Shown piece after piece: positions 8,268-31,618 of a DNA stretch of 47,745 bases. Every line of letters starts with the position of its first letter. Positions within the stretch are counted from its first letter, which is position 1. Source of the stretch: an uncultured Candidatus Peribacteria bacterium (GTDB taxonomy: Bacteria > Patescibacteriota > Gracilibacteria > UBA4473); assembly GCA_964468965.1 (NCBI GenBank), contig CAYXXA010000002.1:1-47745 (forward strand), read 5' to 3'. The notes beneath the pieces were generated by a model. It made no database searches and was not told the DNA's origin. It saw nothing but the letters and a program-made list of their open reading frames with translations. The translations under genes were made by a program, and so were the position numbers.

Positions 8268-8339
8268 TTATCAACCTTCCGTTGTAAATATCGGTTTTTG
8301 AGGATTTTTTATGTTAATGGCTGTTACAATTTCTTTATA

Positions 8340-8516
8340 CTAGGTATTTATATTTATATTTTCTGAATTTTTACAGGTTTCCATTACAGAACAAATAAAA
8401 AGAGTATTTTCTTTAACATATTCTGGTACACTATCCGTTTCATGTTCCTGATGAATTCTCTCAAGAACCATTTCAAATAACTCTTGCTCTAATTCCGAGA
8501 GTTCTTTGCTCTCCAT
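8340..8516 (-). CDS. Hypothetical small acidic protein (58 aa, MESKELSELEQELFEMV...)
   Basis: Hand-translated ORF in an otherwise empty 449-bp AT-rich gap. TATAAT-like hexamers lie upstream on the minus strand. There is no homology evidence. Confidence 0.2.
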   Translation of the reverse strand: MESKELSELEQELFEMVLERIHQEHETDSVPEYVKENTLFICSVMETCKNSENININT

Positions 8517-8716
8517 CTTTTTATTATAGACTAATATTGTAATTTTACAAGTATTATAGAGTAAATATTTTATCTAAATGACTTACTCTATCCCTATTTT
8601 TGATCCTCAAAAGATTACATCTACCACTTTCGTTAATCATATTACGCCTATATCTAGAAGAGGGATTTCGACACCACTAAAATACAAGTGGAAAACTGTA
8701 TACTGAAACTGAAGCA

Positions 8717-9550
8717 CTACAAAACAATCTTCATTTTACCCAAACTTTCTTGTGGTCGATACTGTTCAAAGAGTTGGTCAAAAACTTCTAGTACTAATGC
8801 TTTGTCACCCTTTTCCGCTCGATCAAAAGCCTTCTTGGGACATTGAAAATTGATAGATTTGTGTGTAGGTTTACGACTGATAATTTCTTGTGCCTGATCA
8901 AAGTGAATATCGTAGATATGGGCATTGGAAATGGAAACCGTCAGAAATCCAACGGGGAGCTTTAATTTTTCAGCGAGGAAATGTGTGAGAAGTGCGAATC
9001 CTCCGACATCGTGAGGATTTCCAAGCATCATATCGTTTGATCGAATGATTAAATGTAGACAAACTCGTCCGCCAATAACTTGTACCGTGAACGTAAAAGG
9101 ACAAGGGACATTCTTCTTCTTTGTTCCGCTTGCAAGCCCGTCATCTGCTGGATCCCACATCAAAATCACCCCGTGTCGTGATGAAGGATCTCTTTGTAGA
9201 AGTTTTATGAGTCCATCTATCTGATCACGTCCGAAGTGCTTTCGCCAGCGGTATCCATAGGCGGCTTCAACACAATTATTTTCTTCGGCAAAGTCATCCC
9301 AGATCTTGGTAAAGTCCTGTAGCCATTCAAGATTTTTTTTCCCCATTAGAAACCAAACCTGTTCGGCAATAAAGACCTTGAGCGGAATTTTTCGGAGGGT
9401 TAGAAGCGGGAATCCCTCAGCTAAATCATACTTCATAGTAACCCCAGGGAGGCTTTTACACACATGCCCCGTTCGCTCGTTGAGCTCTTCAAATCCATTC
9501 TCAAGGATATCTTTGAGAATATTTTGGTACTGGATATCAAATGCATTCAT
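8717..9550 (-). CDS. Thymidylate synthase (ThyA) superfamily enzyme; substrate specificity uncertain
   Basis: Aligned by eye to E. coli ThyA. It shares ERTG (Arg21), AEQVWF (Glu58), IWDDF (Trp80), DPSSRH, the catalytic Cys in VPCPF, IIRSND (Arg166/Ser167/Asp169) and NAHIY (His207/Tyr209). Asp181 occupies the Asn177 position. Confidence 0.85.
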   Translation of the reverse strand: MNAFDIQYQNILKDILENGFEELNERTGHVCKSLPGVTMKYDLAEGFPLLTLRKIPLKVFIAEQVWFLMGKKNLEWLQDFTKIWDDFAEENNCVEAAYGYRWRKHFGRDQIDGLIKLLQRDPSSRHGVILMWDPADDGLASGTKKKNVPCPFTFTVQVIGGRVCLHLIIRSNDMMLGNPHDVGGFALLTHFLAEKLKLPVGFLTVSISNAHIYDIHFDQAQEIISRKPTHKSINFQCPKKAFDRAEKGDKALVLEVFDQLFEQYRPQESLGKMKIVL

Positions 9551-9597: not shown

Positions 9598-9954
9598 TTA
9601 CCCAGTAATACCAGTAATGGTTCCCGATTGAGTTTTGACCATATCCCCAATTGTTTGTGTTGGGTCTGTACTCGTTTGAGAAGATTGAGAAATGTCTAAG
9701 GTCTTGAGTGTATCTTTACTGTCAGGGCTAACAAAAATAGCAATACCTGAAACCTTAACAATAATCTGTCCATCACTTTCAAACCAGTAAGCCTCAGATA
9801 AAGCGTTTTTACCATTAAGCATTTCTAAAAGTTCTAATGATTGATCCCTGTTAAGAGATAAGATTAAATCTTGAAGTTCTTGTACATCAAAGTTTGAACT
9901 GATAAAAAGTTCAACAGCTTCTTGGAGTGATGTATTTTGTTTTTTAATTTCCAT
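9598..9954 (-). CDS. Hypothetical protein (118 aa)
   Basis: ATG-initiated ORF in the same-strand cluster between the TatD and ThyA-family genes. No motif recognised. Confidence 0.4.
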   Translation of the reverse strand: MEIKKQNTSLQEAVELFISSNFDVQELQDLILSLNRDQSLELLEMLNGKNALSEAYWFESDGQIIVKVSGIAIFVSPDSKDTLKTLDISQSSQTSTDPTQTIGDMVKTQSGTITGITG

Positions 9955-9984: not shown

Positions 9985-10851
9985 TCAAATTCCAAAAAGT
10001 TTTTTCCCATTTTCAAATAGAATATCCCCACATTCTTCAATCACCATGTCTTTGAGCTCCGCGATGAGTTCAACAACTTCTGGGAGGAGGCCTGGATGGT
10101 TGACCTTGTTTTTCTTATTCTTGGCTTTTCGAGGGGTTAGGAAGGGACTATCGGTCTCCGTAACCAAGTACTCAATAGGGGTTTGGATGACGGCTTCACG
10201 AATTTTATCCGTATTATTATAGGTGAGCACACCACCAATACCGAGGGAAAATCCATATTTTTCCGTTACGATTTTGGCAAACTCAGGATCTTCACAAAAA
10301 CAATGGATCACACCCCGAATACCTCGTTCTTTGAGGTTGGATTTACTCAGTTCTTCTAGGGTTACTTTTCGGGCATTTCGAGTATGAATAATAATGGGCT
10401 TTTCGTATTTTTCACAAAGATCTAGATGGCGTTGAAAACTGTCTTTTTGAAGTTCCAAAATCTCAGTAGAATTTTCGTGATAAAGATCAAATCCCGTTTC
10501 CCCAAACCCAACAATATTTTTAGAATTTGATTCAAAAGTGGTTTCGAAAAATCTAAAAAGTTCATCCATATTTTTGGCCTGAATATTATATTTTTCAAAG
10601 CCTGCGTATCGATGGTATTCTTCATTTTTGACACCAATATTTTTGACATCACAGGGATGAAGCCCAATGGTGGCAAAATGGTTATTATATTTTTTGGCTA
10701 ATTCAAGTGCGGCAAGAGATGAGATTTCATCACAGCCGATTTGTACTTGGTATTTTACATTGGCTTCATCACATTTCTTGAATATATTTTCCTGATCTTT
10801 TTCAATACTTGGGAAATAGCAGTGCGTGTGCGTGTCGATTATTGAGTACAT
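9985..10851 (-). CDS. TatD-family metal-dependent hydrolase/DNase
   Basis: N-terminal IDTHTHC motif, later GETGFD and VIHCF/ETDSPF motifs. I chose the ATG at 10851 rather than the track's TTG at 10872. Confidence 0.85.
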   Translation of the reverse strand: MYSIIDTHTHCYFPSIEKDQENIFKKCDEANVKYQVQIGCDEISSLAALELAKKYNNHFATIGLHPCDVKNIGVKNEEYHRYAGFEKYNIQAKNMDELFRFFETTFESNSKNIVGFGETGFDLYHENSTEILELQKDSFQRHLDLCEKYEKPIIIHTRNARKVTLEELSKSNLKERGIRGVIHCFCEDPEFAKIVTEKYGFSLGIGGVLTYNNTDKIREAVIQTPIEYLVTETDSPFLTPRKAKNKKNKVNHPGLLPEVVELIAELKDMVIEECGDILFENGKKLFGI

Positions 10852-11016
10852 AGTTTGATTATCGATAAACAATGCACAATTGGCAATAAAAAAATCATAT
10901 CACTTTGAACGGAGGGAGAAATGTATCTGAAATAGAGACGAAAAGTTTCCCTTCCTGAAAGGTGGAATTGGATCCTAAACTTTCGTACTTTCTCTGGTAT
11001 CGAGATGACAAGTTCC

Positions 11017-11841
11017 TTATCTAACCAGCTCAGTTTTTACCTTTTGAAAGTTTTTAGTCATGGTAATCCAGTCCTCAATTTTTAGCGTTTCGGCACGAGC
11101 ATTTGGATCAATATTCCCCAAAACTTTACTCGCCTCAATGCCAAAAAATTTACCGATATAGTTTCCTATTTTTTTTCGTTTTTGGGAGAATCCAGCGTTA
11201 ACCATGGTAAAAAAGTCCGCTTCATCTTTGGGAGAAATCAATGGGGTTTTCCTCGTATCGAGCCGAATAATAGCCGAATCAACGCGTGGAGCAGGATTGA
11301 AATTTTCACGGGTGACAGTGAAGCAGTATTTAGCTTTCGCAAAAATCTCTACTGAAATCGAAAGAATGGACCGTTTTTTAGTATTACAGATTTTCTGTGC
11401 GACCTCTTTTTGCACCATAAAGATTGAAAAAATTGGTTTATTAGTTGTTTCTGAAAGTACCTTCTTGATAATAGGATTAGTGATATGATAAGGGATGTTG
11501 GCGATAATAGAATAGTTTTTATTCTTAAATAGTTCATCAAGATCAATATCCAAAATACTAATAGGCAGTAGTGTGAAATCTGGATTTTCACCAAACTCAT
11601 TTTCTAAAACACGAATAGCTCGTGGATCAATTTCAAGGGCGGTAAGATTGGCTTTATTCTTAAGAATTTCTGAGGTTAAAAATCCAAGACCTGATCCAAT
11701 TTCTAAGATGTTCATCTGCTTAATACTACCAGCTTCTTCTAGAATATTGGTTCGAATATGAGGGCTGTTCAAAAAATTTTGCCCAAGGGATTTTTTGGCA
11801 AACCGAGATTCCTGTTGATTTTTTGATTTTTTATAAGACAT
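11017..11841 (-). CDS. rsmA: 16S rRNA (adenine1518/1519-N6) dimethyltransferase
   Basis: KKSLGQNFL, SAM-binding ILEIGSGLGFLT, and NIPYHITNPI. I chose the ATG at 11841 rather than the TTG at 11880. Confidence 0.9.
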   Translation of the reverse strand: MSYKKSKNQQESRFAKKSLGQNFLNSPHIRTNILEEAGSIKQMNILEIGSGLGFLTSEILKNKANLTALEIDPRAIRVLENEFGENPDFTLLPISILDIDLDELFKNKNYSIIANIPYHITNPIIKKVLSETTNKPIFSIFMVQKEVAQKICNTKKRSILSISVEIFAKAKYCFTVTRENFNPAPRVDSAIIRLDTRKTPLISPKDEADFFTMVNAGFSQKRKKIGNYIGKFFGIEASKVLGNIDPNARAETLKIEDWITMTKNFQKVKTELVR

Positions 11842-11889
11842 AGTTGCCTTATTTTTACAGGGCAAACGAATTAAAGGCAAATAGTTTAT

Positions 11890-16581: not shown

Positions 16582-18771
16582 TTACCGTTTAATCGTTGCC
16601 AGTGTTTCAAACCCTGGTGGAGGAAGACTACTTACCTTCCCATCTACTCTAATAACAAACGCATTAAGGTTCCGATCGCATGGAGTTGAAAAACAATCTG
16701 CCTCATTGGTCATACTCCCTCCACCAGCCGGGTAAAGTGGCTGAAATTGTCGAACAAAATGAAGATCATAAGTCTTTGCATGTGTCTCTGTTGTTGTTCC
16801 ATTCGTCTCTCCTTCCACGCCCCACGGATTACTATAGGTAGAGGGGAATAAGCTACCACCAACTGTGTTATGCGTCATCAACGTTCCTTTAAGAAGAAGC
16901 TGATTGGCGGCCGTCAGTGGCAGTGATCCATTGTTATTCGCCGCAACCGAAATGCTGTTGAAAGAAACTGCATCCGCGATCGACATAAATCCACCTTCCG
17001 CAAAGTAAGTTCCTACGATATTCTTAACCCGATTTCTTACAAAAATGTTTCCCTTTTCTGGATACGGATCAATCGCATCATTTATTAGTATAAATCCAAA
17101 GGAATCACTTTCACTGGCATAAGCCAAGTCCCCACTGATGAGGAGGTTTCCATTCCGGATAACCAGTGTATTCTTCCCTGCAGGCAAATTAAACGTTCCA
17201 CCGTTAAATCCAATTTCAACATCACCATCGACAACAGCTACATGACTGTTATTATACCAGTTTGTATCAAATTGCCCTCCTAATTGGACGGGAATTCCCC
17301 GTGTAATACTCGCCGCATTTTGAGAAAGCACTTCTCTTGCATCTTTGAAGTTTAATCCACCTAAAAGAAGGTGTTCTGTATCTGAAAAAGTTTGCTGAGA
17401 TGTTTTACTTGATAGGACATCCCCCTCGATGGAAACCCCTATCATTCGAGTGCCAATAGAATCGTCATTCAGATCATCTACTTCTCCCGCTGTTACTCCA
17501 AATCCAGACCCCAAAGCTCCACTTGGGTAGCGAATAATACCAATAGGAGTATCATATTCAACCTCTGTTGAAAAAGAGAGATCGTGACTAAACTTTGGAT
17601 CGGGACCCGTTAGCGTTAGTTCAAGATTTCGAATATAGGTTTCACCAGATGGATCCCGTTGTGTATTAGGCGTTGGATTATCTTTGAAAAATGCCTGACT
17701 TGCCGCTGTAAAACTAAGAGCTGTTGGTAAGTTATGATAGTGGAGGTATGTTCTTAAAAAGGTTTTGACTGGTGGGCCCGCTGTCCCTCCAGGATTAGCA
17801 GGTGTCAAAGAACGAAAAAGCTTCATTGGCGTTGGGACATCTACAATAAACTCCGAGTTATTAAGCAATGAAAGCAATGTTTTTGCTGGTGGTCGAAATC
17901 GCACATCTGGAGAATACTGACCATACTGAAAGGTAACCGTATTCCCCATATCAAGATTCCCATTAGCATCAATTGTAAATAATTCAATATTAAGATCTAA
18001 TTGCTTTGCTTCGTTTTTTCCTAGGTGTGCAACAACCTCACTTGTTGAAGGTGCCCAAGCTGAAAGCTGAAACTGTTTTGAAACTGTTGCATCATTGGAT
18101 AGCGTAAAAGTGGTAGGCGTACTACTTGTTCCAATAGCACCTAAACCAGAGAGTCTTAATCCATCACGAAAAGATACCCCTCGATTAGCGTCTAGCGGAT
18201 AATCTGAATCTGAGTAAATTTGAGCATTTTTCCCCGCCAATTGCGTTACAGGATTTCCATACTTATCTTTAACCTTAAAAATAAAGGTACAAATATCTGT
18301 CCCATTAGCAATATTAACCCCTGATTCTCCCGTTGTCTGGCAACCACTTACACTGAATTCAGATTGATCTTGATTTGGCGTACCAGCTTTTACCGTAAAA
18401 TTTGAAACAACTGGATCTGAAGTATTCTCTGCAAAATCTTTTAGGGTAATAGTTACTGTATATTCTCCAGCTTGATGAAAACAGTTATCTATCACTGGAG
18501 CACTATTTTCGTCAGAATATCCCAGTGTATCCAAATCTTCTACCACACAATGATCCTTAGTACCAACGCAATTATCAGGTGAAATTGCGAAACAAGAAAA
18601 GGCTGGAACCTCAGAATTTTCAGCCGTAAATTCTACCTGCATTGTTGACTCTTCCCAATCAACTCCTGTACCTTCTACCTCGACTTGAGCAGCCATGGTT
18701 ATTCCAGAATAAAAACTTAGTACCAAAAACCATACTAGATTTTTCCGAAAGCCACTTAATATTTTTTTCAT
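16582..18771 (-). CDS. Large secreted protein (729 aa), Ig-like N-terminal region and beta-helix-like C-terminal region; function unknown
   Basis: Signal peptide MKKILSGFRKNLVWFLVLSFYSGITMAAQ. A Big_1/invasin-like stretch reads ...FIFKVKDKYGNPVTQLAGKNAQIY.... The C-terminal region is repetitive and Gly/Asn-rich, e.g. NTLVIRNGNLLISGDL.... Confidence 0.6.
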   Translation of the reverse strand: MKKILSGFRKNLVWFLVLSFYSGITMAAQVEVEGTGVDWEESTMQVEFTAENSEVPAFSCFAISPDNCVGTKDHCVVEDLDTLGYSDENSAPVIDNCFHQAGEYTVTITLKDFAENTSDPVVSNFTVKAGTPNQDQSEFSVSGCQTTGESGVNIANGTDICTFIFKVKDKYGNPVTQLAGKNAQIYSDSDYPLDANRGVSFRDGLRLSGLGAIGTSSTPTTFTLSNDATVSKQFQLSAWAPSTSEVVAHLGKNEAKQLDLNIELFTIDANGNLDMGNTVTFQYGQYSPDVRFRPPAKTLLSLLNNSEFIVDVPTPMKLFRSLTPANPGGTAGPPVKTFLRTYLHYHNLPTALSFTAASQAFFKDNPTPNTQRDPSGETYIRNLELTLTGPDPKFSHDLSFSTEVEYDTPIGIIRYPSGALGSGFGVTAGEVDDLNDDSIGTRMIGVSIEGDVLSSKTSQQTFSDTEHLLLGGLNFKDAREVLSQNAASITRGIPVQLGGQFDTNWYNNSHVAVVDGDVEIGFNGGTFNLPAGKNTLVIRNGNLLISGDLAYASESDSFGFILINDAIDPYPEKGNIFVRNRVKNIVGTYFAEGGFMSIADAVSFNSISVAANNNGSLPLTAANQLLLKGTLMTHNTVGGSLFPSTYSNPWGVEGETNGTTTETHAKTYDLHFVRQFQPLYPAGGGSMTNEADCFSTPCDRNLNAFVIRVDGKVSSLPPPGFETLATIKR

Positions 18772-18792: not shown

Positions 18793-21700
18793 CTAAGCAC
18801 TTCCAATCGCTTGTCGCCTTTTTCCACAGTTATTTTCTTGCATAAAAGGCACTCCTGCTGGTCTAGTTGAAGTAGCAGGGGACCAACTCGATGGATCATC
18901 CACACAATCTCCACGCCCTAGTATTCCTGGCAGACAAAGTTCTAAATTTCGTTGATCACAAGCTGGAAAACAAATTCCTGTGTCATAAATATAACCTGGT
19001 TCACAATAACTCGCACAAGATCCACCAGCTTCTAAATTTTGTTCTCCTCTGTCAACCGCGGACGTTCCACAAGTTGAAAATTTCTCTATACAATAAGATC
19101 CATTATTAAATAAAGGAGAAATAATACCGTCTCCGGTGTACCCACAAGCATCATTATTGTAGTCCGCCGTACTGTTCCCCGCTTGAGTACTCGAAAGTGA
19201 ACGTCGCAATTCCTTGACTGTTGTCAACACAAAAGCTTGACTCTCGCTTGCCCGAACTAATCCTGATGGAAGTGTTCTTGTTGGGACTTCGGGCTTTACC
19301 GCATCGTACCAATCGATATCGTTAGCGTGTGTTTCTGGATCAATGCAATTTCCCGCTTTATCACAAACTTTTATTTTTCGAGTTCCTGTCGTATCACAAA
19401 TTGTAGAATCATCACAGAAATTCCCCCGAACGTGAATCTCGTAGTTTGACTTCATACAATTACTCCCTAATGACTCATTACAAGTAAAATTCAGCAAAAT
19501 GCCTTCCGCTTTTGATTTTGAAAGTGATTTTACACTTTTAATCCGTTGTTGAAGATCGGGAATACTATCGGGAATCGTTGAGTCCTCTAAAGTTGTTATT
19601 GTTGCCTGAATTGACTCAATTTCAGAAGTTAGCGCTGATACTTGTGTTGTCAATAAGTCAATATCCACATTAAGAGCTTGTAATTCCGCTGTAATCGCTG
19701 AAATATCATGAGAAACCGTTGTATAGTCACTGAGTAAGTGATTTCGCAGAGCACATAGACTATTAACTTCCATTAATGACATAAGTGAATCTCTCCTTAT
19801 TGCAAAAAGTTGCATACAAGATAGTGGTTTACTAAAGGGATTTATTTCCATGAAAGAACTATTTATCTGTTTTATTTTAAAAGCAATAATCCCTTTTTTT
19901 GTTATTAATTTATCTTTTTTCATGGACTTATAGGGTTCTATTCTATTCTTCTTATCAGATAAAATATCTGCTTTTTGATTTCGCTCAGACTCTTTGGAAA
20001 GGAGTGTTGCTCTCGCCGCATCACGAGTATTTATTTTAGTCGCTAATAAAGTTTCTGCCGCCTCAACACGCGGTTTGTGAAGCCTTTGCTGGGGATTGTT
20101 ATCGTATTTGAAGTTTAAAATAGGTGATGTTTGATCGATCTTTAGTGTTCGCGCTGTTGAACCATACCAAACCCCTCCAGAACAAGATACCCCAGTCCCT
20201 CCTATACAGAAGTACACCTCATAATCCCAATCTCCATCCGTCAAAAAAGTTTTTAGTGGTGTCGCGTCAACAAGTGTGTCTGCCTCCGTATTCAGCTCAA
20301 ACTCAAAACGAACATTATCGGTAACTGAAAACCCATTCCCCGTTGAGGCATTAAAATCTCCTGTCATATCAATTGCCACGTACCCCTCCTGTGTTCCCTT
20401 TGTCAAATGAACAAGTGTAAATCCTGGTTTTGTATTAGCTGGTGCAAACAATGGTGCCGAATCTAAAAGCAAACTACTCAGAATACTCCCACTCATCCGT
20501 ACTTTAGCATAATTCCCAAACCCTGCATTGGGGACTCCTGTTGTATCTGGATTAGGATTAAAAAACCAAGACGTTACAGGATACTTCCACCACAACTGTG
20601 CACCTACTCCAGACGTCGGGAAAGCCAGTGCCTGACTTGTAACAAAAAAAACCCCTACAAAAATCATAAAGAATCTTCGGTGTAGACGAAGCCATCCATT
20701 AATAGCAATTAAAAAGAGTATTAACGCCCCCCCTCCATAAAGAAACCAGTCTTTTCGCACCCACCATTTAACTTTTTCAATTTTCCCCTCGAGTGCTTTA
20801 CTTTTCTTTTGCGCCTCAATGCCATCCAATATACTTGGGTCGATAAACATTTTTCGTTCTAGATGTTTCTGTCCAATAACTTTCCCCTTTTTACTTAGCT
20901 CAATGTCAGCCACAAAAATACTAGCCTTTTGTGTTAAAGTAAAAGTAAATCCCCCCTTAAAATTCCCGTTTTTCGCTACCTTCAGCAACTTCTCATCTTT
21001 CAGCTCTGCCACTTCTTCATTTTCCCATTTTTGCACCACTCTTATTCTAGCTTTAATATCTCCCACAGGAAGAGTTGTTCCAGCAAAAACAAAACTCACT
21101 TTTTTCGATTTTAAATCTTCCTCAAGAAGATCGAAATAGTTAATTTGAGCAAAAAGCCCCTCAACATAAAAGTGCCCCTCAAGAGTCCCTCCACTTTTTT
21201 CACCATTTTTATCCTGTAAAAAAGCCTTAATCGTATAAACCTGTGGAGTAGCTGGTTCCGGGATAGTGATATGAACAATCGACGAAGCAGAAGATAAGGC
21301 CCCCCCTTTAACCGTTTTTTGCAACTTTTTACCTGTACGGTCGTATAATTCTACCACTGGTGTAAACAAAGAAGTATCGGCTTCTGTCTCAACTAAAAAG
21401 GAAACTATTCGATGGCCATCTACTAACTTTATTGACAAGGCGGATATCTTTGTTTTTGTGAAGTTTTCTTGTCGAGGAACTTTTTGCTCTACGCGCCCCA
21501 TAAGTCTGTCTCGTTTTCCATAAATCTCAAAAGTAAGAACTGTTTCTGGTGTAATCTTGACGTCCTTTATATCAAGGTCAAAGCGAAGTTTTCCTTGTTT
21601 TATAGCGGATAAGTCCACTTTCTCTTCAAAAAAAATAGCCCCAGCCTTATCCCTTAACTGAAATCGAGCCTTCGTTATTGTCGCCTGAGGGAGTCCAAAA

Positions 21701-21909
21701 ACACGACCAACGAGTTGACCAGCTTTTGTCTGTCGAAAAAAATCTAACTTCATACTACTAACCGTAATGGAATCCATCCAAACCACTTTACTCGTCTCTG
21801 GAGGTTTAAAATCCCTGATAATCAAACTCTTAGCAGACCCATTGTCAATGATAAAAAGAAGTCCCAAGAAAATTAAATAAATACACTGTTTTATTTTTGC
21901 ATATAACAT
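18793..21909 (-). CDS. Giant membrane-tethered surface protein (1038 aa); function unknown
   Basis: N-terminal signal/anchor, a ~370-aa beta-rich region, a central hydrophobic hairpin (WFLYGGGALILFLIAINGW-LRLHRR-FFMIFVGVFFVTSQALA), a coiled-coil-like stretch, then a Cys-rich C-terminus. It lies 21 nt upstream of the 729-aa gene. Confidence 0.6.
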   Translation of the reverse strand: MLYAKIKQCIYLIFLGLLFIIDNGSAKSLIIRDFKPPETSKVVWMDSITVSSMKLDFFRQTKAGQLVGRVFGLPQATITKARFQLRDKAGAIFFEEKVDLSAIKQGKLRFDLDIKDVKITPETVLTFEIYGKRDRLMGRVEQKVPRQENFTKTKISALSIKLVDGHRIVSFLVETEADTSLFTPVVELYDRTGKKLQKTVKGGALSSASSIVHITIPEPATPQVYTIKAFLQDKNGEKSGGTLEGHFYVEGLFAQINYFDLLEEDLKSKKVSFVFAGTTLPVGDIKARIRVVQKWENEEVAELKDEKLLKVAKNGNFKGGFTFTLTQKASIFVADIELSKKGKVIGQKHLERKMFIDPSILDGIEAQKKSKALEGKIEKVKWWVRKDWFLYGGGALILFLIAINGWLRLHRRFFMIFVGVFFVTSQALAFPTSGVGAQLWWKYPVTSWFFNPNPDTTGVPNAGFGNYAKVRMSGSILSSLLLDSAPLFAPANTKPGFTLVHLTKGTQEGYVAIDMTGDFNASTGNGFSVTDNVRFEFELNTEADTLVDATPLKTFLTDGDWDYEVYFCIGGTGVSCSGGVWYGSTARTLKIDQTSPILNFKYDNNPQQRLHKPRVEAAETLLATKINTRDAARATLLSKESERNQKADILSDKKNRIEPYKSMKKDKLITKKGIIAFKIKQINSSFMEINPFSKPLSCMQLFAIRRDSLMSLMEVNSLCALRNHLLSDYTTVSHDISAITAELQALNVDIDLLTTQVSALTSEIESIQATITTLEDSTIPDSIPDLQQRIKSVKSLSKSKAEGILLNFTCNESLGSNCMKSNYEIHVRGNFCDDSTICDTTGTRKIKVCDKAGNCIDPETHANDIDWYDAVKPEVPTRTLPSGLVRASESQAFVLTTVKELRRSLSSTQAGNSTADYNNDACGYTGDGIISPLFNNGSYCIEKFSTCGTSAVDRGEQNLEAGGSCASYCEPGYIYDTGICFPACDQRNLELCLPGILGRGDCVDDPSSWSPATSTRPAGVPFMQENNCGKRRQAIGSA

Positions 21910-25952: not shown

Positions 25953-26456
25953 ATGAAAGTAACACTCCTCATGGCAATTACCCTAGACGGGAAAATTGGG
26001 AAAGATGCTGATCACTTTCCTGACTGGACAGGAAAAGAAGATAAAAAACTCTTTGTTGAAATGACTAAAAAAGCAGGAGTTTTGATCATGGGTTCGAAAA
26101 CTTTTGATACGATTGGCAAACCGCTCCCCGATCGGAAAAATATTATCATTACTCGAAGTAAACACCGTAAATCTGAATGGAAAAACTTAGAATTCACTAA
26201 TAAGACCCCTCATGAAATTCTAGAAAAACTCGAAACGGAAAATTTTACAGAAGTTATCCTTGCGGGAGGATCACAGATAAATAGTCTTTTTGCCAGAGCT
26301 AACGCTATCAATGAAATCGTTGTGACCATTTGTCCGAAGATTTTTGGATCAGGTATTGGGCTTTTCACCGAAGACATTGAGATGAACTTAACTTTATTAG
26401 GTATGAAAAAAATATCAGAGGATGTTTTGTGTTTGAAGTACAAGGTTTTAAAATAA
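25953..26456 (+). CDS. RibD C-terminal-domain family reductase (dihydrofolate-reductase-like)
   Basis: MAITLDGKIG...LIMGSKTFDTIGKPLPDRKNIIITRS...ILAGGSQINS matches the RibD_C/DHFR-like fold pattern. Confidence 0.7.
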   Translation: MKVTLLMAITLDGKIGKDADHFPDWTGKEDKKLFVEMTKKAGVLIMGSKTFDTIGKPLPDRKNIIITRSKHRKSEWKNLEFTNKTPHEILEKLETENFTEVILAGGSQINSLFARANAINEIVVTICPKIFGSGIGLFTEDIEMNLTLLGMKKISEDVLCLKYKVLK

Positions 26457-29347: not shown

Positions 29348-29578
29348 TCAACGCCCAAATAATGGACCAAAAAAGGAAATAAGCAATGGCTGTAATCCCC
29401 CCATTGCCCACATGAAGGATAGAATTGAAAGTCCAAGTCCAAAGAGTTTTACAAAAGTGTAAGTCCCACCTTGTAGAAATAGTTTTTCGGCAAAGTCAAT
29501 CTCTCCCGTATACTCTACAATATTCCTGGCATAAACAATCATAGCAATCCCAATCGGAATCAAAATCCAAGCTAACAT
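29348..29578 (-). CDS. Hypothetical small membrane protein (76 aa, 2-3 TM segments)
   Basis: Hydrophobic segments MLAWILIPIGIAMIVY and LFGLGLSILSFMWAMGGL. It is divergent from the pilin-like genes. Confidence 0.4.
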   Translation of the reverse strand: MLAWILIPIGIAMIVYARNIVEYTGEIDFAEKLFLQGGTYTFVKLFGLGLSILSFMWAMGGLQPLLISFFGPLFGR

Positions 29579-29687
29579 GATAATACTTAATAAATCGAAA
29601 AGAGCTAAACGCCAACAGATTCTAAAAACAAAAATACTTTTGTCAAAAATAATTGCGGAAAGTTTCTTTTTTCGCTATAATAAGGGA

Positions 29688-30698
29688 ATGGTGAAATATA
29701 TACTAGCCCTTCTTATCCTTTCTGGAAGTATTATCACAGAAACTTCCTTTGCCGATGATGCTTCGGGGAGTTATGACGATATAATGCCAAACTGGGAAAT
29801 AGGACAAACAACATCCAATTCAACCACACCAAAAAACAATACTAAAACAAGTACCTCCTCAACAAAGAGCAGAAAAACTCTCAAACTTCCAGATATAAAG
29901 AACTACGATCACGCTATTAAAAATAATCGCATCATAAAAACTATCGGTGATGGACAAGGACGCGGTGGTATTAAGTATGCCTTTAGAAATTTAGTAGGGC
30001 CAGACAGTGCTATAATCCCTGTCATTAACTATATTATGGCTGCCATTGCCCTTATCTGGCTCAGTATTCTTGGTGCTAAGTTTATATTTTCTCGAGGGGA
30101 AGAGGAAAACTTATCAAAGTATAAACAACAATTTGGATGGATTATTCTAGGACTACTCATTATCTCCATCGCTGAATATGTGGCATTCAATGTCTTTGAC
30201 CCCGTTTCAACTGGGGCTTTGGATACCAATGATGGCGTTAATCAGTTTGTTGAGATTATCCGGAAGATTATTACCTTCTTAAAATATCTCGTTGGAGGGG
30301 TTGCCCTTCTCGCTGGAGTACGGTCTGGGTTTGCCCTCATTGTTGGTGGAGGTGAAGATGACGTCATTCAAAAAGAAAAAGAGTTTGTAAAAATATTCCT
30401 TTTTGCCATTGCTCTAATTATCATGGCTGAATCACTTGAGCGATGGATTGATCTCAGTGCCGGTGGTGTTGGTATTCAGGCCGAAGGTCTAGTTATCGAA
30501 GCTGTAGGAATTATAAACTTTATTCTCACTTTTATCGCTGGAGCAGCTCTCTTTATGTTAGTCCTTTCAAGTCTTTACTACATTATTAGTTTTGGAGATG
30601 AAGAGATAACTGGACGTGCCAAAAAAATGATTATCGCTAGCATTGTAGGACTTATTATTGCCTATTCAGCTTATACTATCGTTCGATTTCTTGTTTAA
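29688..30698 (+). CDS. Secreted membrane protein with three tandem VirB2/TrbC-type (T4SS pilin-like) modules
   Basis: Signal peptide MVKYILALLILSGSIITETSFA. Three TM-loop-TM modules have acidic loops: FSRGEEENLSKYKQ, VGGGEDDVIQKEKE and ISFGDEEITGRAKKMIIASIVGLIIAYSAYTIVRF. I preferred the ATG at 29688 over 29577, which would overlap the divergent gene. Confidence 0.55.
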   Translation: MVKYILALLILSGSIITETSFADDASGSYDDIMPNWEIGQTTSNSTTPKNNTKTSTSSTKSRKTLKLPDIKNYDHAIKNNRIIKTIGDGQGRGGIKYAFRNLVGPDSAIIPVINYIMAAIALIWLSILGAKFIFSRGEEENLSKYKQQFGWIILGLLIISIAEYVAFNVFDPVSTGALDTNDGVNQFVEIIRKIITFLKYLVGGVALLAGVRSGFALIVGGGEDDVIQKEKEFVKIFLFAIALIIMAESLERWIDLSAGGVGIQAEGLVIEAVGIINFILTFIAGAALFMLVLSSLYYIISFGDEEITGRAKKMIIASIVGLIIAYSAYTIVRFLV

Positions 30699-30703
30699 AT
30701 TAT

Positions 30704-31618
30704 ATGTCAAAAATATTTCTCAGCTTCGTTATTTCTATTATGAGTATCAGCTTTGTCTGCGAAACAAGTTTTGCCGTTGTCGATTCGCGAAGTGTCTTTA
30801 GTGGTAATCGAGAGCTTCTTGGAGAACAATTAGATATCAAAGATTACAGTAACATTAGCATTGACGGTCGATCCTGTCAGAATCGTGAAATCCGTTGTAT
30901 TATAGAAAGTATCATTGAGTACCTCAAAAAGTTACTGCTTCCTATTGCTATCGTTCTTTTAATGTGGTCTGGAATCTATCTTCTCTTAGTTCGAACCGAT
31001 GAAGAAGCCTTTAAAAAAAGAAAAAACGAAGTCTTTGGAATCTTTGCTGGATTTATGATCATTCTCATATCGGCAAGCCTCATTGACAATGTTTTCTTTG
31101 GAACACAAGGAGAGATCCTTCAAGGAGCAGATACTTCATGGTTTGCCCAATCAGCACTTATTCAGATCAATGGGTTGGTAAATTTTTTACTAACTTTTGT
31201 TGTCCCTGTCGGCGTTCTTGTTTTAATTGTCAGTGCTTTCCAGCTCATCATTGGTGGTGGTGATGATGAACAAATGAGTAAAGCTAAAAAGAAAATTATA
31301 TATGTCATTATCGGAATTGCCGTTATCCTTCTAACCCAGTCTATTGTTGGTGCACTGACCGGAGGGGAAGAAATAAAACCTATCAATGCAAAACCTTACC
31401 TTATCATTCTTGTCAGCTGGATAAACTGGATTCTTGGATTTATTGGAGTATTAGGTGTCTTAGCTATCGTCTGGGCTGGAATTTCTATGATCGCCCACTT
31501 TGGTGATGAAGAACGAGTAGAAAGTGCCAAGAATATTATCAAATTTGTTGCTATTGGACTTATTATTGCCTTCTCCTCTTGGACTATTATTCGGTTTTTT
31601 CTTACAGCAGGAAACTAA
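30704..31618 (+). CDS. Paralogous secreted membrane protein with three tandem VirB2/TrbC-type pilin-like modules
   Basis: Signal peptide MSKIFLSFVISIMSISFVCETSFA. Module loops are LVRTDEEAFKKRKN, IGGGDDEQMSKAKKKIIYVIIGIAV and AHFGDEERVESAKNIIKFVAIGLIIAFSSWTIIRF. It has the same architecture as the upstream gene. Confidence 0.55.
   Translation: MSKIFLSFVISIMSISFVCETSFAVVDSRSVFSGNRELLGEQLDIKDYSNISIDGRSCQNREIRCIIESIIEYLKKLLLPIAIVLLMWSGIYLLLVRTDEEAFKKRKNEVFGIFAGFMIILISASLIDNVFFGTQGEILQGADTSWFAQSALIQINGLVNFLLTFVVPVGVLVLIVSAFQLIIGGGDDEQMSKAKKKIIYVIIGIAVILLTQSIVGALTGGEEIKPINAKPYLIILVSWINWILGFIGVLGVLAIVWAGISMIAHFGDEERVESAKNIIKFVAIGLIIAFSSWTIIRFFLTAGN

Follow-up and report, generated by a model that had tools for sequence, protein, structure and literature searches.

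Can a chromosomal enzyme of the ThyA family whose uracil-reading asparagine has become an aspartate still be an ordinary thymidylate synthase (TS)? The question is raised by a gene on a contig of an uncultured Candidatus Peribacteria bacterium (GenBank assembly GCA_964468965.1, contig CAYXXA010000002.1, positions 1 to 47,745), the whole stretch of 47,745 nucleotides being referred to here as the window. The gene lies at 8717..9550 on the minus strand as an ATG-to-TAG open reading frame (ORF) of 277 amino acids (aa) plus stop, and is of a ThyA subtype that has aspartate and proline in place of Asn177 and His147 of the Escherichia coli enzyme (Asp181 and Pro151 in the window protein). Textbook cellular routes to thymidylate are two, ThyA and ThyX, and both act on deoxyuridine monophosphate (dUMP). 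Here we argue that the enzyme would instead be a dihydrofolate-releasing C5-methyltransferase of deoxycytidine monophosphate (dCMP) that serves as a housekeeping thymidylate enzyme, with deamination following methylation. We regard this full reading as an even call. That the enzyme is a dCMP methylase, counting in the variant in which 5-methylcytosine (5mC) enters DNA, seems to us somewhat better than even, and that its substrate is a cytosine nucleotide of any kind, with a hydroxymethylase counted in as well, is slightly likelier again.

Active site and fold of the ThyA-like protein

The window protein matches PF00303 over residues 7-243 (E 4.2e-57; 193.7 bits vs a cut-off of 24.3). Against thymidylate synthases in the PDB, phmmer pairs IRSNDMMLGNPHDVGGF with QRSADVFLGVPFNIASY, which sets Asp181 on the Asn177 column, and a MAFFT alignment with E. 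coli ThyA makes the same assignment. The original prediction had read three substitutions by eye, Asn177 to Asp, His147 to Pro, and the second arginine of the arginine pair (Arg127) to His, and all three are borne out. phmmer and MAFFT agree on the aspartate (GAT codon at 9008..9010, minus strand; the column that reads O4/N3 of the pyrimidine) and on the other two, phmmer pairing ‘VPCPFTF’ with ‘PCHAMFQF’ and so placing Pro151 at His147. The codons of Pro151 and of the catalytic Cys150 (Cys146 in E. coli) before it are at 9098..9103 on the minus strand. The catalytic core is also kept in the MAFFT alignment as it had been listed, that is Arg21 (ERTG), Glu58 (AEQVWF), Cys146, Arg166/Ser167/Asp169 (IRSND) and His207/Tyr209 (NAHIY), and Trp80, Tyr94 and Arg126 are kept too. 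Cys146, Arg21, Arg126, Arg166, Ser167, Asp169, His207 and Tyr209 are invariant in 120 homologs. At the C-terminus, ‘...KIVL’ lines up with the end of TS, and the TS-like lid is kept.

The AlphaFold2 model (pLDDT 91, pTM 0.91) has the TS fold, and its top Foldseek matches are all TSs, aligned over the full length including the C-terminus (E ~1e-21, TMq 0.72-0.83). With canonical ThyA (EC 2.1.1.45; E. coli, Lactobacillus casei) the protein thus shares its fold (TMq ~0.8), the C-terminal lid, the catalytic cysteine, Glu58, Trp80, Tyr94, Arg21/126/166, Asp169 and His207/Tyr209, as well as a coupling to dihydrofolate reductase (DHFR) and a presumed role in thymidylate supply. TS chemistry would accordingly be retained in our reading, with Cys150 as the nucleophile and the glutamate, Trp80, Tyr94, phosphate-binding arginines and lid in place, and the enzyme would use methylene-tetrahydrofolate to methylate dCMP rather than dUMP at C5, yielding 5-methyl-dCMP and dihydrofolate. 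Unlike canonical ThyA, to which it is ~30-35% identical, the protein carries Asp for Asn177, Pro for His147, Asn for Leu143, Phe for Trp83, His for Arg127 and Thr for Gln151. Two of these sites set it apart from the canonical dUMP-using enzymes in particular: Asn177, which reads O4/N3-H, and His147, which belongs to the water network to O4 and Tyr94.

The protein could alternatively be a conventional synthase with a drifted active site, in which deamination comes first and dUMP is then methylated to deoxythymidine monophosphate (dTMP), Asp181 being kept in the protonated form or offset by Pro151, His180 and Asn147. The structures that it matches best are those of TS with dUMP bound, databases annotate it as a thymidylate synthase, and it passes TIGR03284 (145.9 bits vs a cut-off of 108.35). 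TIGR03284 is, however, the only NCBIfam ThyA equivalog passed; on the best-scoring of these models (NF002497, NF002496, NF002499 and NF002495) the protein reaches 132-175 against cut-offs of 325-405, far below them all. Moreover, according to the account in PMC8670742, which cites Liu & Santi 1992 and Hardy & Nalivaika 1992, replacing Asn177 with Asp in two model TSs, those of E. coli and L. casei, shifts preference to dCMP and turns them into dCMP methylases. Taken with the evidence that follows, we hold a conventional synthase to be possible but doubtful. PHROGs, which we had considered as a discriminator, separated nothing: the window protein, the TS of phage AAT-1, T4 gp42 and E. coli ThyA all match the catch-all phrog_160.

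Relationship to phage and bacterial enzymes of the ThyA family

Phages Xp12 and PaMx74 have all their cytosine replaced by 5mC (bioRxiv 10.1101/2024.12.05.627091). Production of 5-methyldeoxycytidine (5mdC) in vivo was found for the TS homolog of Xp12 and for five of the seven metagenomic Asp177 homologs tested, none of those seven was reported as a maker of deoxythymidine (dT), and the deaminases encoded beside Asp177 TS homologs favour 5-methylated cytosine nucleotides (bioRxiv 10.1101/2024.12.05.627091). This record of natural Asp177 enzymes speaks against a conventional synthase. In a MetaGPA analysis, positions 177 and 147 ranked first and second in separating cytosine-modified from unmodified phage contigs (PMC8670742); in our own tabulation the strongest discriminators between Asp- and Asn-group sequences are positions 177, 147 and 143. 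By analogy, the substrate of the window protein is probably dCMP because all published evidence ties Asp177/Pro147 to cytosine, and the combination of Asp181 and Pro151 would read the N3/N4-amino face of the base.

From an exhaustive search of 1.84 billion representatives we took the best 150 clusters, ~120 of which have Asp177, Asn143 and Phe83 and usually Pro147, the canonical Asn177/His147/Leu143/Trp83 set appearing from about rank 72 on in a ranking biased toward the query's own type. A neighbor-joining (NJ) tree groups 125 of the 127 Asp177 sequences in a single clade, separate from canonical ThyA, with 46/60 bootstraps once columns 147 and 177 are taken out, and places the window protein inside a subclade of Chloroflexota and the candidate phyla radiation (CPR) (33/60 bootstraps). 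The ThyA homologs of two phages, Pseudomonas phage AAT-1 and Rhodobacter phage RcSimone-Hastad, also fall in the large Asp177 clade; AAT-1 belongs to the genus Pamexvirus, as do Xp12 and PaMx74 (PMC9206674). Two further sequences, P0243 and P0247, are nested among canonical His147/Asn177 ThyAs, yet carry both Pro147 and Asp177. Their position suggests coupled and independent switches at the two sites, and such co-variation and convergence count against a dUMP enzyme that has drifted.

The window protein thus resembles the dCMP C5-methyltransferase of Xp12 and the pamexviruses (PaMx74, AAT-1) in its ThyA fold, in Asp177, Pro147, Asn143 and Phe83, and in its NJ clade. In relatives of the window the likeness extends to linkage with DHFR, a CDA-family deaminase and a nucleoside triphosphate pyrophosphatase (the window itself has DHFR only, 16 kb off) and to the proposed pathway, in which deamination to thymine nucleotides would come after methylation. 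The module of AAT-1 and RcSimone-Hastad comprises a MazG pyrophosphatase, TS-Asp177, a dCMP-type deaminase and DHFR, and from sequence comparison the CPR clusters hold the same kinds of parts. The two systems differ in that identity is ~33-38%, that the motif reads ‘LGNPHD’ here vs ‘LGLPYD’ there, and that the bacterial gene is chromosomal, housekeeping and vertically conserved, not virus-encoded. In the bacteria, furthermore, the pyrophosphatase partner is a Dcd-family protein without the deaminase glutamate, not MazG, and the deaminase comes from a distinct CPR subfamily (GHWWCCxPCW); 5mC in DNA is an Xp12 trait, the CPR system being known from genes alone.

A prophage or mobile origin of the window gene was considered and rejected in view of its housekeeping neighbours and the lack of close viral relatives. 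The nearest ones in IMG/VR are only 44-50% identical to the window protein, and their contigs carry a DCD/dUTPase-like protein, a CPR-type deaminase and TS-Asp177.

The original prediction had pointed to a cytosine-directed enzyme that might methylate or hydroxymethylate, and had proposed a phylogeny with ThyA and T4 gp42 as a check. Were the protein a (d)CMP hydroxymethylase like T4 gp42 or MilA/BcmA, its products would be 5-hydroxymethyl-cytosine nucleotides and the folate would not be oxidised. T4 gp42 is of the ThyA family, shares with the window protein the aspartate at the specificity column and the ‘RSND’ motif, and acts on a cytosine nucleotide, as the window protein would; it is, however, very distant in sequence and stands in the NJ tree as a long-branch outgroup, away from the Asp177 clade that holds the window protein. 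It also works without a reductive step, without need of DHFR and without the TS C-terminal lid. The CMP hydroxymethylases MilA and BcmA can be likened to our protein by their description as ThyA-family enzymes of bacterial chromosomes that use a cytosine nucleotide, but by that same description they act on ribo-CMP, hydroxymethylate it and sit in secondary-metabolite (nucleoside-antibiotic) clusters. A Pfam scan of the window ORFs found no secondary-metabolite genes, and no glucosyltransferase or antibiotic-pathway genes lie nearby in the window or the related loci. Reductive methylation, not hydroxymethylation, is therefore the probable chemistry, given the linkage to DHFR (tight in relatives, and something a hydroxymethylase does not need) and to serine hydroxymethyltransferase (SHMT), the conserved Trp80, Tyr94 and C-terminal lid, the kinship with assayed enzymes that made 5mdC and the distance from gp42. 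The cytosine half of the prediction is supported, fitting PMC8670742, the NEB preprint (bioRxiv 10.1101/2024.12.05.627091) and the Asp177 clade, and a hydroxymethylase has become very improbable.

Conservation across the lineage and the CPR

Two samples of relatives were compared: the 120 closest database proteins (67-100% identity, on contigs of up to 1.3 Mb), and 80 loci of 52-85% identity found by scanning GTDB at one genome per species. Asp177 and Pro147 are both present in 120/120 of the former, which also share His127, Asn143, Phe83, Thr151, Asn168 and His176; in the latter, Asp stands at 177 in 80/80 and Pro at 147 in all except three. Because it is invariant in all of these relatives, Asp177 is not a product of chance or sequencing error. 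Loci of 67-85% identity come from Peribacteria, Gracilibacteria and ‘Altimarinota’ metagenome-assembled genomes (MAGs), that is from the window's own lineage. Those of 52-59% come from Daviesbacteria, Harrisonbacteria, Uhrbacteria, Woesebacteria, Shapirobacteria, Paceibacterota, Magasanikbacteria, Kerfeldbacteria, Taylorbacteria and MAGs labelled Saccharibacteria, as well as from Ktedonobacterales and Anaerolinea (Chloroflexota). The Asp177 type is thus present in >12 CPR classes and some Chloroflexota. What had been taken for an unexpected oddity in a reduced genome is instead the standard ThyA type of the window's lineage and of many CPR classes. A housekeeping, chromosomal and lineage-wide gene is also what one would expect of a conventional synthase.

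Several CPR classes, Uhrbacteria and Kerfeldbacteria among them, have loci in which the phosphate-binding Arg21 gives way to Trp (L040, L048, L051, L059, L060, L063-L065, L067, L071, L077 and L087 in our locus labels) or Leu (L055 and L084), the remaining signature being kept.

Linked genes and the proposed order of steps

Gene neighbours were counted in 78 of the GTDB loci, those with a recognised thyA-like ORF. A DHFR gene lies within four genes of the thyA-like gene in 51/78 loci and a Dcd-family gene in 53/78, with 23 Tmk and 18 SHMT hits in the locus stretches around it. Typically Dut, Tmk, GlyA and the deaminase are encoded on one strand, with the ThyA, DHFR and DCD-like genes on the opposite one; in two complete 1.3-Mb genomes the thyA-like gene is followed by DHFR and the Dcd-family gene. 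In one locus (L007:10001-16045) the thyA-like gene is separated from the DHFR and DCD-like genes by an insertion of serB-like, serA and serC genes, coupling the supply of serine (one-carbon units) to the cluster. This is the classic thyA-folA linkage with Tmk, GlyA and Dut, and as such it suits a conventional synthase well.

The Dcd-family partner (~216 aa, barely passing TIGR02274; e.g. L001:11791-12441 and L002:11407-12057, and 53 loci among L008-L087) has Pro at the position of the deaminase glutamate (E. coli Glu138) in 51/53 cases, and keeps Arg110, Ser111/112, Arg115 and Asp128, residues of nucleotide binding and phosphoester hydrolysis. With proline in place of that glutamate, it is more likely a pyrophosphatase than a deaminase, and from its sequence is probably mis-annotated, which sits poorly with a deamination-first pathway. 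Dictyostelium Dcd2 nests among CPR/Chloroflexi Dcd homologs and complements E. coli dcd- (PMC10733785), a result that favours the conventional pathway. T4 gp56 dCTPase, the dCMP supplier of that phage, was examined as a precedent for the DCD-like partner and discarded, the two proteins being unrelated.

A deaminase of ~176 aa (PF00383; HAE ... GHWWCCxPCW) is encoded at most seven genes away in 42 loci, eight of them from the window's lineage (examples are L054:9477-10007(-), L018:12426-12914 and L068:1336-2619(-)). This subfamily is of the zinc type with an inserted Cys-rich loop, is widespread in CPR, is only distantly similar to the phage deaminases and gave no significant single-sequence match in the PDB. 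Since 5mC selectivity among deaminases is polyphyletic per published data, its specificity is unreadable from sequence. Fusions of the deaminase to a dTMP kinase make up 14 protein clusters, with identities as low as 58%, and the two domains would act in successive steps only if dTMP is what the deaminase makes; a deaminase joined to the kinase and not to the TS step counts against a conventional synthase. Fusion to a P-loop kinase was seen once, fusion to a nucleoside-deoxyribosyltransferase-like domain also exists, and the TS itself is found as deaminase + Asp177-TS and MazG + Asp177-TS.

These parts would make up the route described for Xp12-type phages, here in bacterial chromosomes and with the ThyA-like enzyme as no mere accessory. 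The linked Dcd-family protein without its deaminase glutamate is the candidate for converting dCTP into dCMP, which would then be methylated to 5-methyl-dCMP, with the folate recycled by DHFR and SHMT. The linked CDA-family deaminase would turn the 5-methylcytosine nucleotide into a thymine nucleotide, and Tmk would phosphorylate the latter. Supply of thymidylate is probably still the physiological role: this is a housekeeping gene found throughout the lineage, Tmk and the deaminase are linked to it, and neither the window nor 1.1 Mb of related loci shows another TS. The original prediction had set modification of (d)CMP against the making of dTMP; more probably the enzyme still belongs to thymidylate synthesis, by a different order of steps, and not to an additional modification of DNA or of an antibiotic.

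Several points weigh against methylation before deamination. The neighbourhood fits the canonical pathway from dCMP through dUMP to dTMP equally; a canonical short Dut is present in ~10 loci; and the DCD-like partner might, by analogy with Dcd2, still feed deoxyuridine nucleotides. Uracil could, in principle, also be read by an aspartate that remains protonated. The assayed phage type is only ~35% identical, with the cellular clade represented by sequences only, and the tree is of the NJ kind throughout, with moderate support. Finally, the window lacks a deaminase, a DCD-like gene, Dut, Tmk and GlyA. Because the other linked genes fit the canonical pathway, methylation-first is favoured solely by Asp177/Pro147 and the deaminase-kinase fusions.

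Two further proteins and a group of small ORFs recur in or near these clusters. A second ThyA-fold paralog of ~345 aa lies between the DHFR and DCD-like genes (L046:12122-13162 and 10 other loci: L035, L036, L037, L045, L049, L073, L074, L075, L078 and L083); it keeps Arg21/126/127/166, Asp169 and an Asp at 177, lacks Cys146, Glu58, Trp80 and Tyr94, and judging by these residues may bind (d)CMP, either without catalysing a reaction or with a different chemistry. A protein of 581 aa in which an Amidohydro_1 (cytosine/guanine-deaminase-like) domain is fused to a nucleoside-deoxyribosyltransferase-like domain sits in the same place between DHFR and the DCD-like gene (L040:11376-13121, L077:9618-11363). 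Small ORFs downstream of the thyA-like genes were considered as a conserved partner and set aside, being mutually unrelated except for one pair (L001/L007).

Possible fate of 5-methyl-dCMP and implications

If dCMP is methylated, the product might also be incorporated, with 5mC replacing part or all of the DNA cytosine as in Xp12, and could there protect against the cell's own or its host's nucleases. The enzyme-level evidence is the same as for methylation followed by deamination; T4-gp1-like deoxynucleoside monophosphate kinases (PF21448) occur in 7 related clusters, and Xp12 and PaMx74, with a homologous module, replace all their cytosine. Against this, the linkage of Tmk and the deaminase points to dTMP as the end product, and the cell would still require a source of thymidylate. 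The window composition is unremarkable (CpG observed/expected 0.98), which is weakly informative. Incorporation is thus an unlikely fate for the product of the window enzyme, and it would be a long shot that many CPR and some Chloroflexota feed 5-methyl-dCMP into their pools and that some of them incorporate 5-methyl-dCTP, so that genomic cytosine is partly or wholly 5mC. Precursor-level replacement of cytosine by 5mC is, to our knowledge, so far known only from phages; in these epibionts it could mark self against the nucleases that they use on host DNA.

We know of no previous inference of a route from dCMP through 5-methyl-dCMP to dTMP outside Xp12-like phages, and our literature search found no paper on an Asp177 ThyA in CPR or on a cellular 5-methyl-dCMP route; CPR papers label the gene simply thyA. 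What is new here is that a large bacterial radiation would rely, for its thymidylate, on a chromosomal and vertically conserved machinery whose enzyme type and pathway logic are known from phages. If this is true, a major bacterial branch has a third cellular route to thymidylate, by which thymidine could be made while dUMP stays low, and metabolic reconstructions of CPR, in which the gene is now annotated as plain thyA, would change. There would also be an evolutionary tie between phage DNA-modification modules and housekeeping genes of cells, 5mC introduced into cellular DNA at the precursor level would become a testable possibility, and new dCMP methylases and 5mC-nucleotide deaminases would be available in large number, which is of biotechnological interest.

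Setting of the gene in the window

All 38 larger ORFs of the window were scanned against Pfam. No second PF00303 match was found among them, and a tblastn of the window with a Thermotoga maritima ThyX sequence gave no match. Of the parts of the module the window holds the thyA-like gene and a DHFR only, the latter a folA-type gene at 25953..26456 on the plus strand (Pfam DHFR_1 and RibD_C), 16 kb from the thyA-like gene. The window DHFR shares 63% identity with its counterpart behind the thyA-like gene of locus L001, and CPR folA genes rescue E. coli folA- (PMC11974145); this DHFR is the likely partner that recycles the dihydrofolate released by reductive methylation.

As originally described, the thyA-like gene is the last of a co-directional run on the minus strand, a description that the ORFs, Pfam matches and base composition uphold. 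It follows ksgA (11017-11880; Pfam RrnaAD), tatD (9985-10872; Pfam TatD_DNase) and a 118-aa hypothetical (9598-9954; no Pfam match), with a promoter-like site for the run at 12286-12258(-), and downstream of it is an AT-rich intergenic gap of 449 bp (8268..8716; 29% GC). The ksgA-tatD-hypothetical arrangement was not seen next to the thyA-like gene among 80 related loci, and these genes are a local transcription context only, without conserved functional link. Inside the gap is a 58-aa acidic ORF (8340-8516, minus strand) with a promoter-like site near it (8550-8523(-)); no homologs of this ORF were found in related loci, and the gap holds nothing comparable to the small downstream ORFs of the relatives.

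Elsewhere the window carries ordinary chromosome genes, among them gyrA, tyrS, metG, purH, guaB, folB, aroC and aroD, as well as glmS, tkt, rny and recJ. Some relatives of the window are labelled Gracilibacteria, a group known for recoding of UGA, and its best GTDB match is a ‘Peribacteria’ MAG. An alternative code was considered for the window and rejected, TGA ending 5/37 ORFs and coding density being 88.5% under table 11. Two adjacent large ORFs on the minus strand (16582-18771 and 18793-21909; 729 and 1038 aa) are without Pfam match, and at 29577-31618 on the plus strand are two tandem genes with type IV secretion pilin (T4SS_pilin/TrbC) domains.

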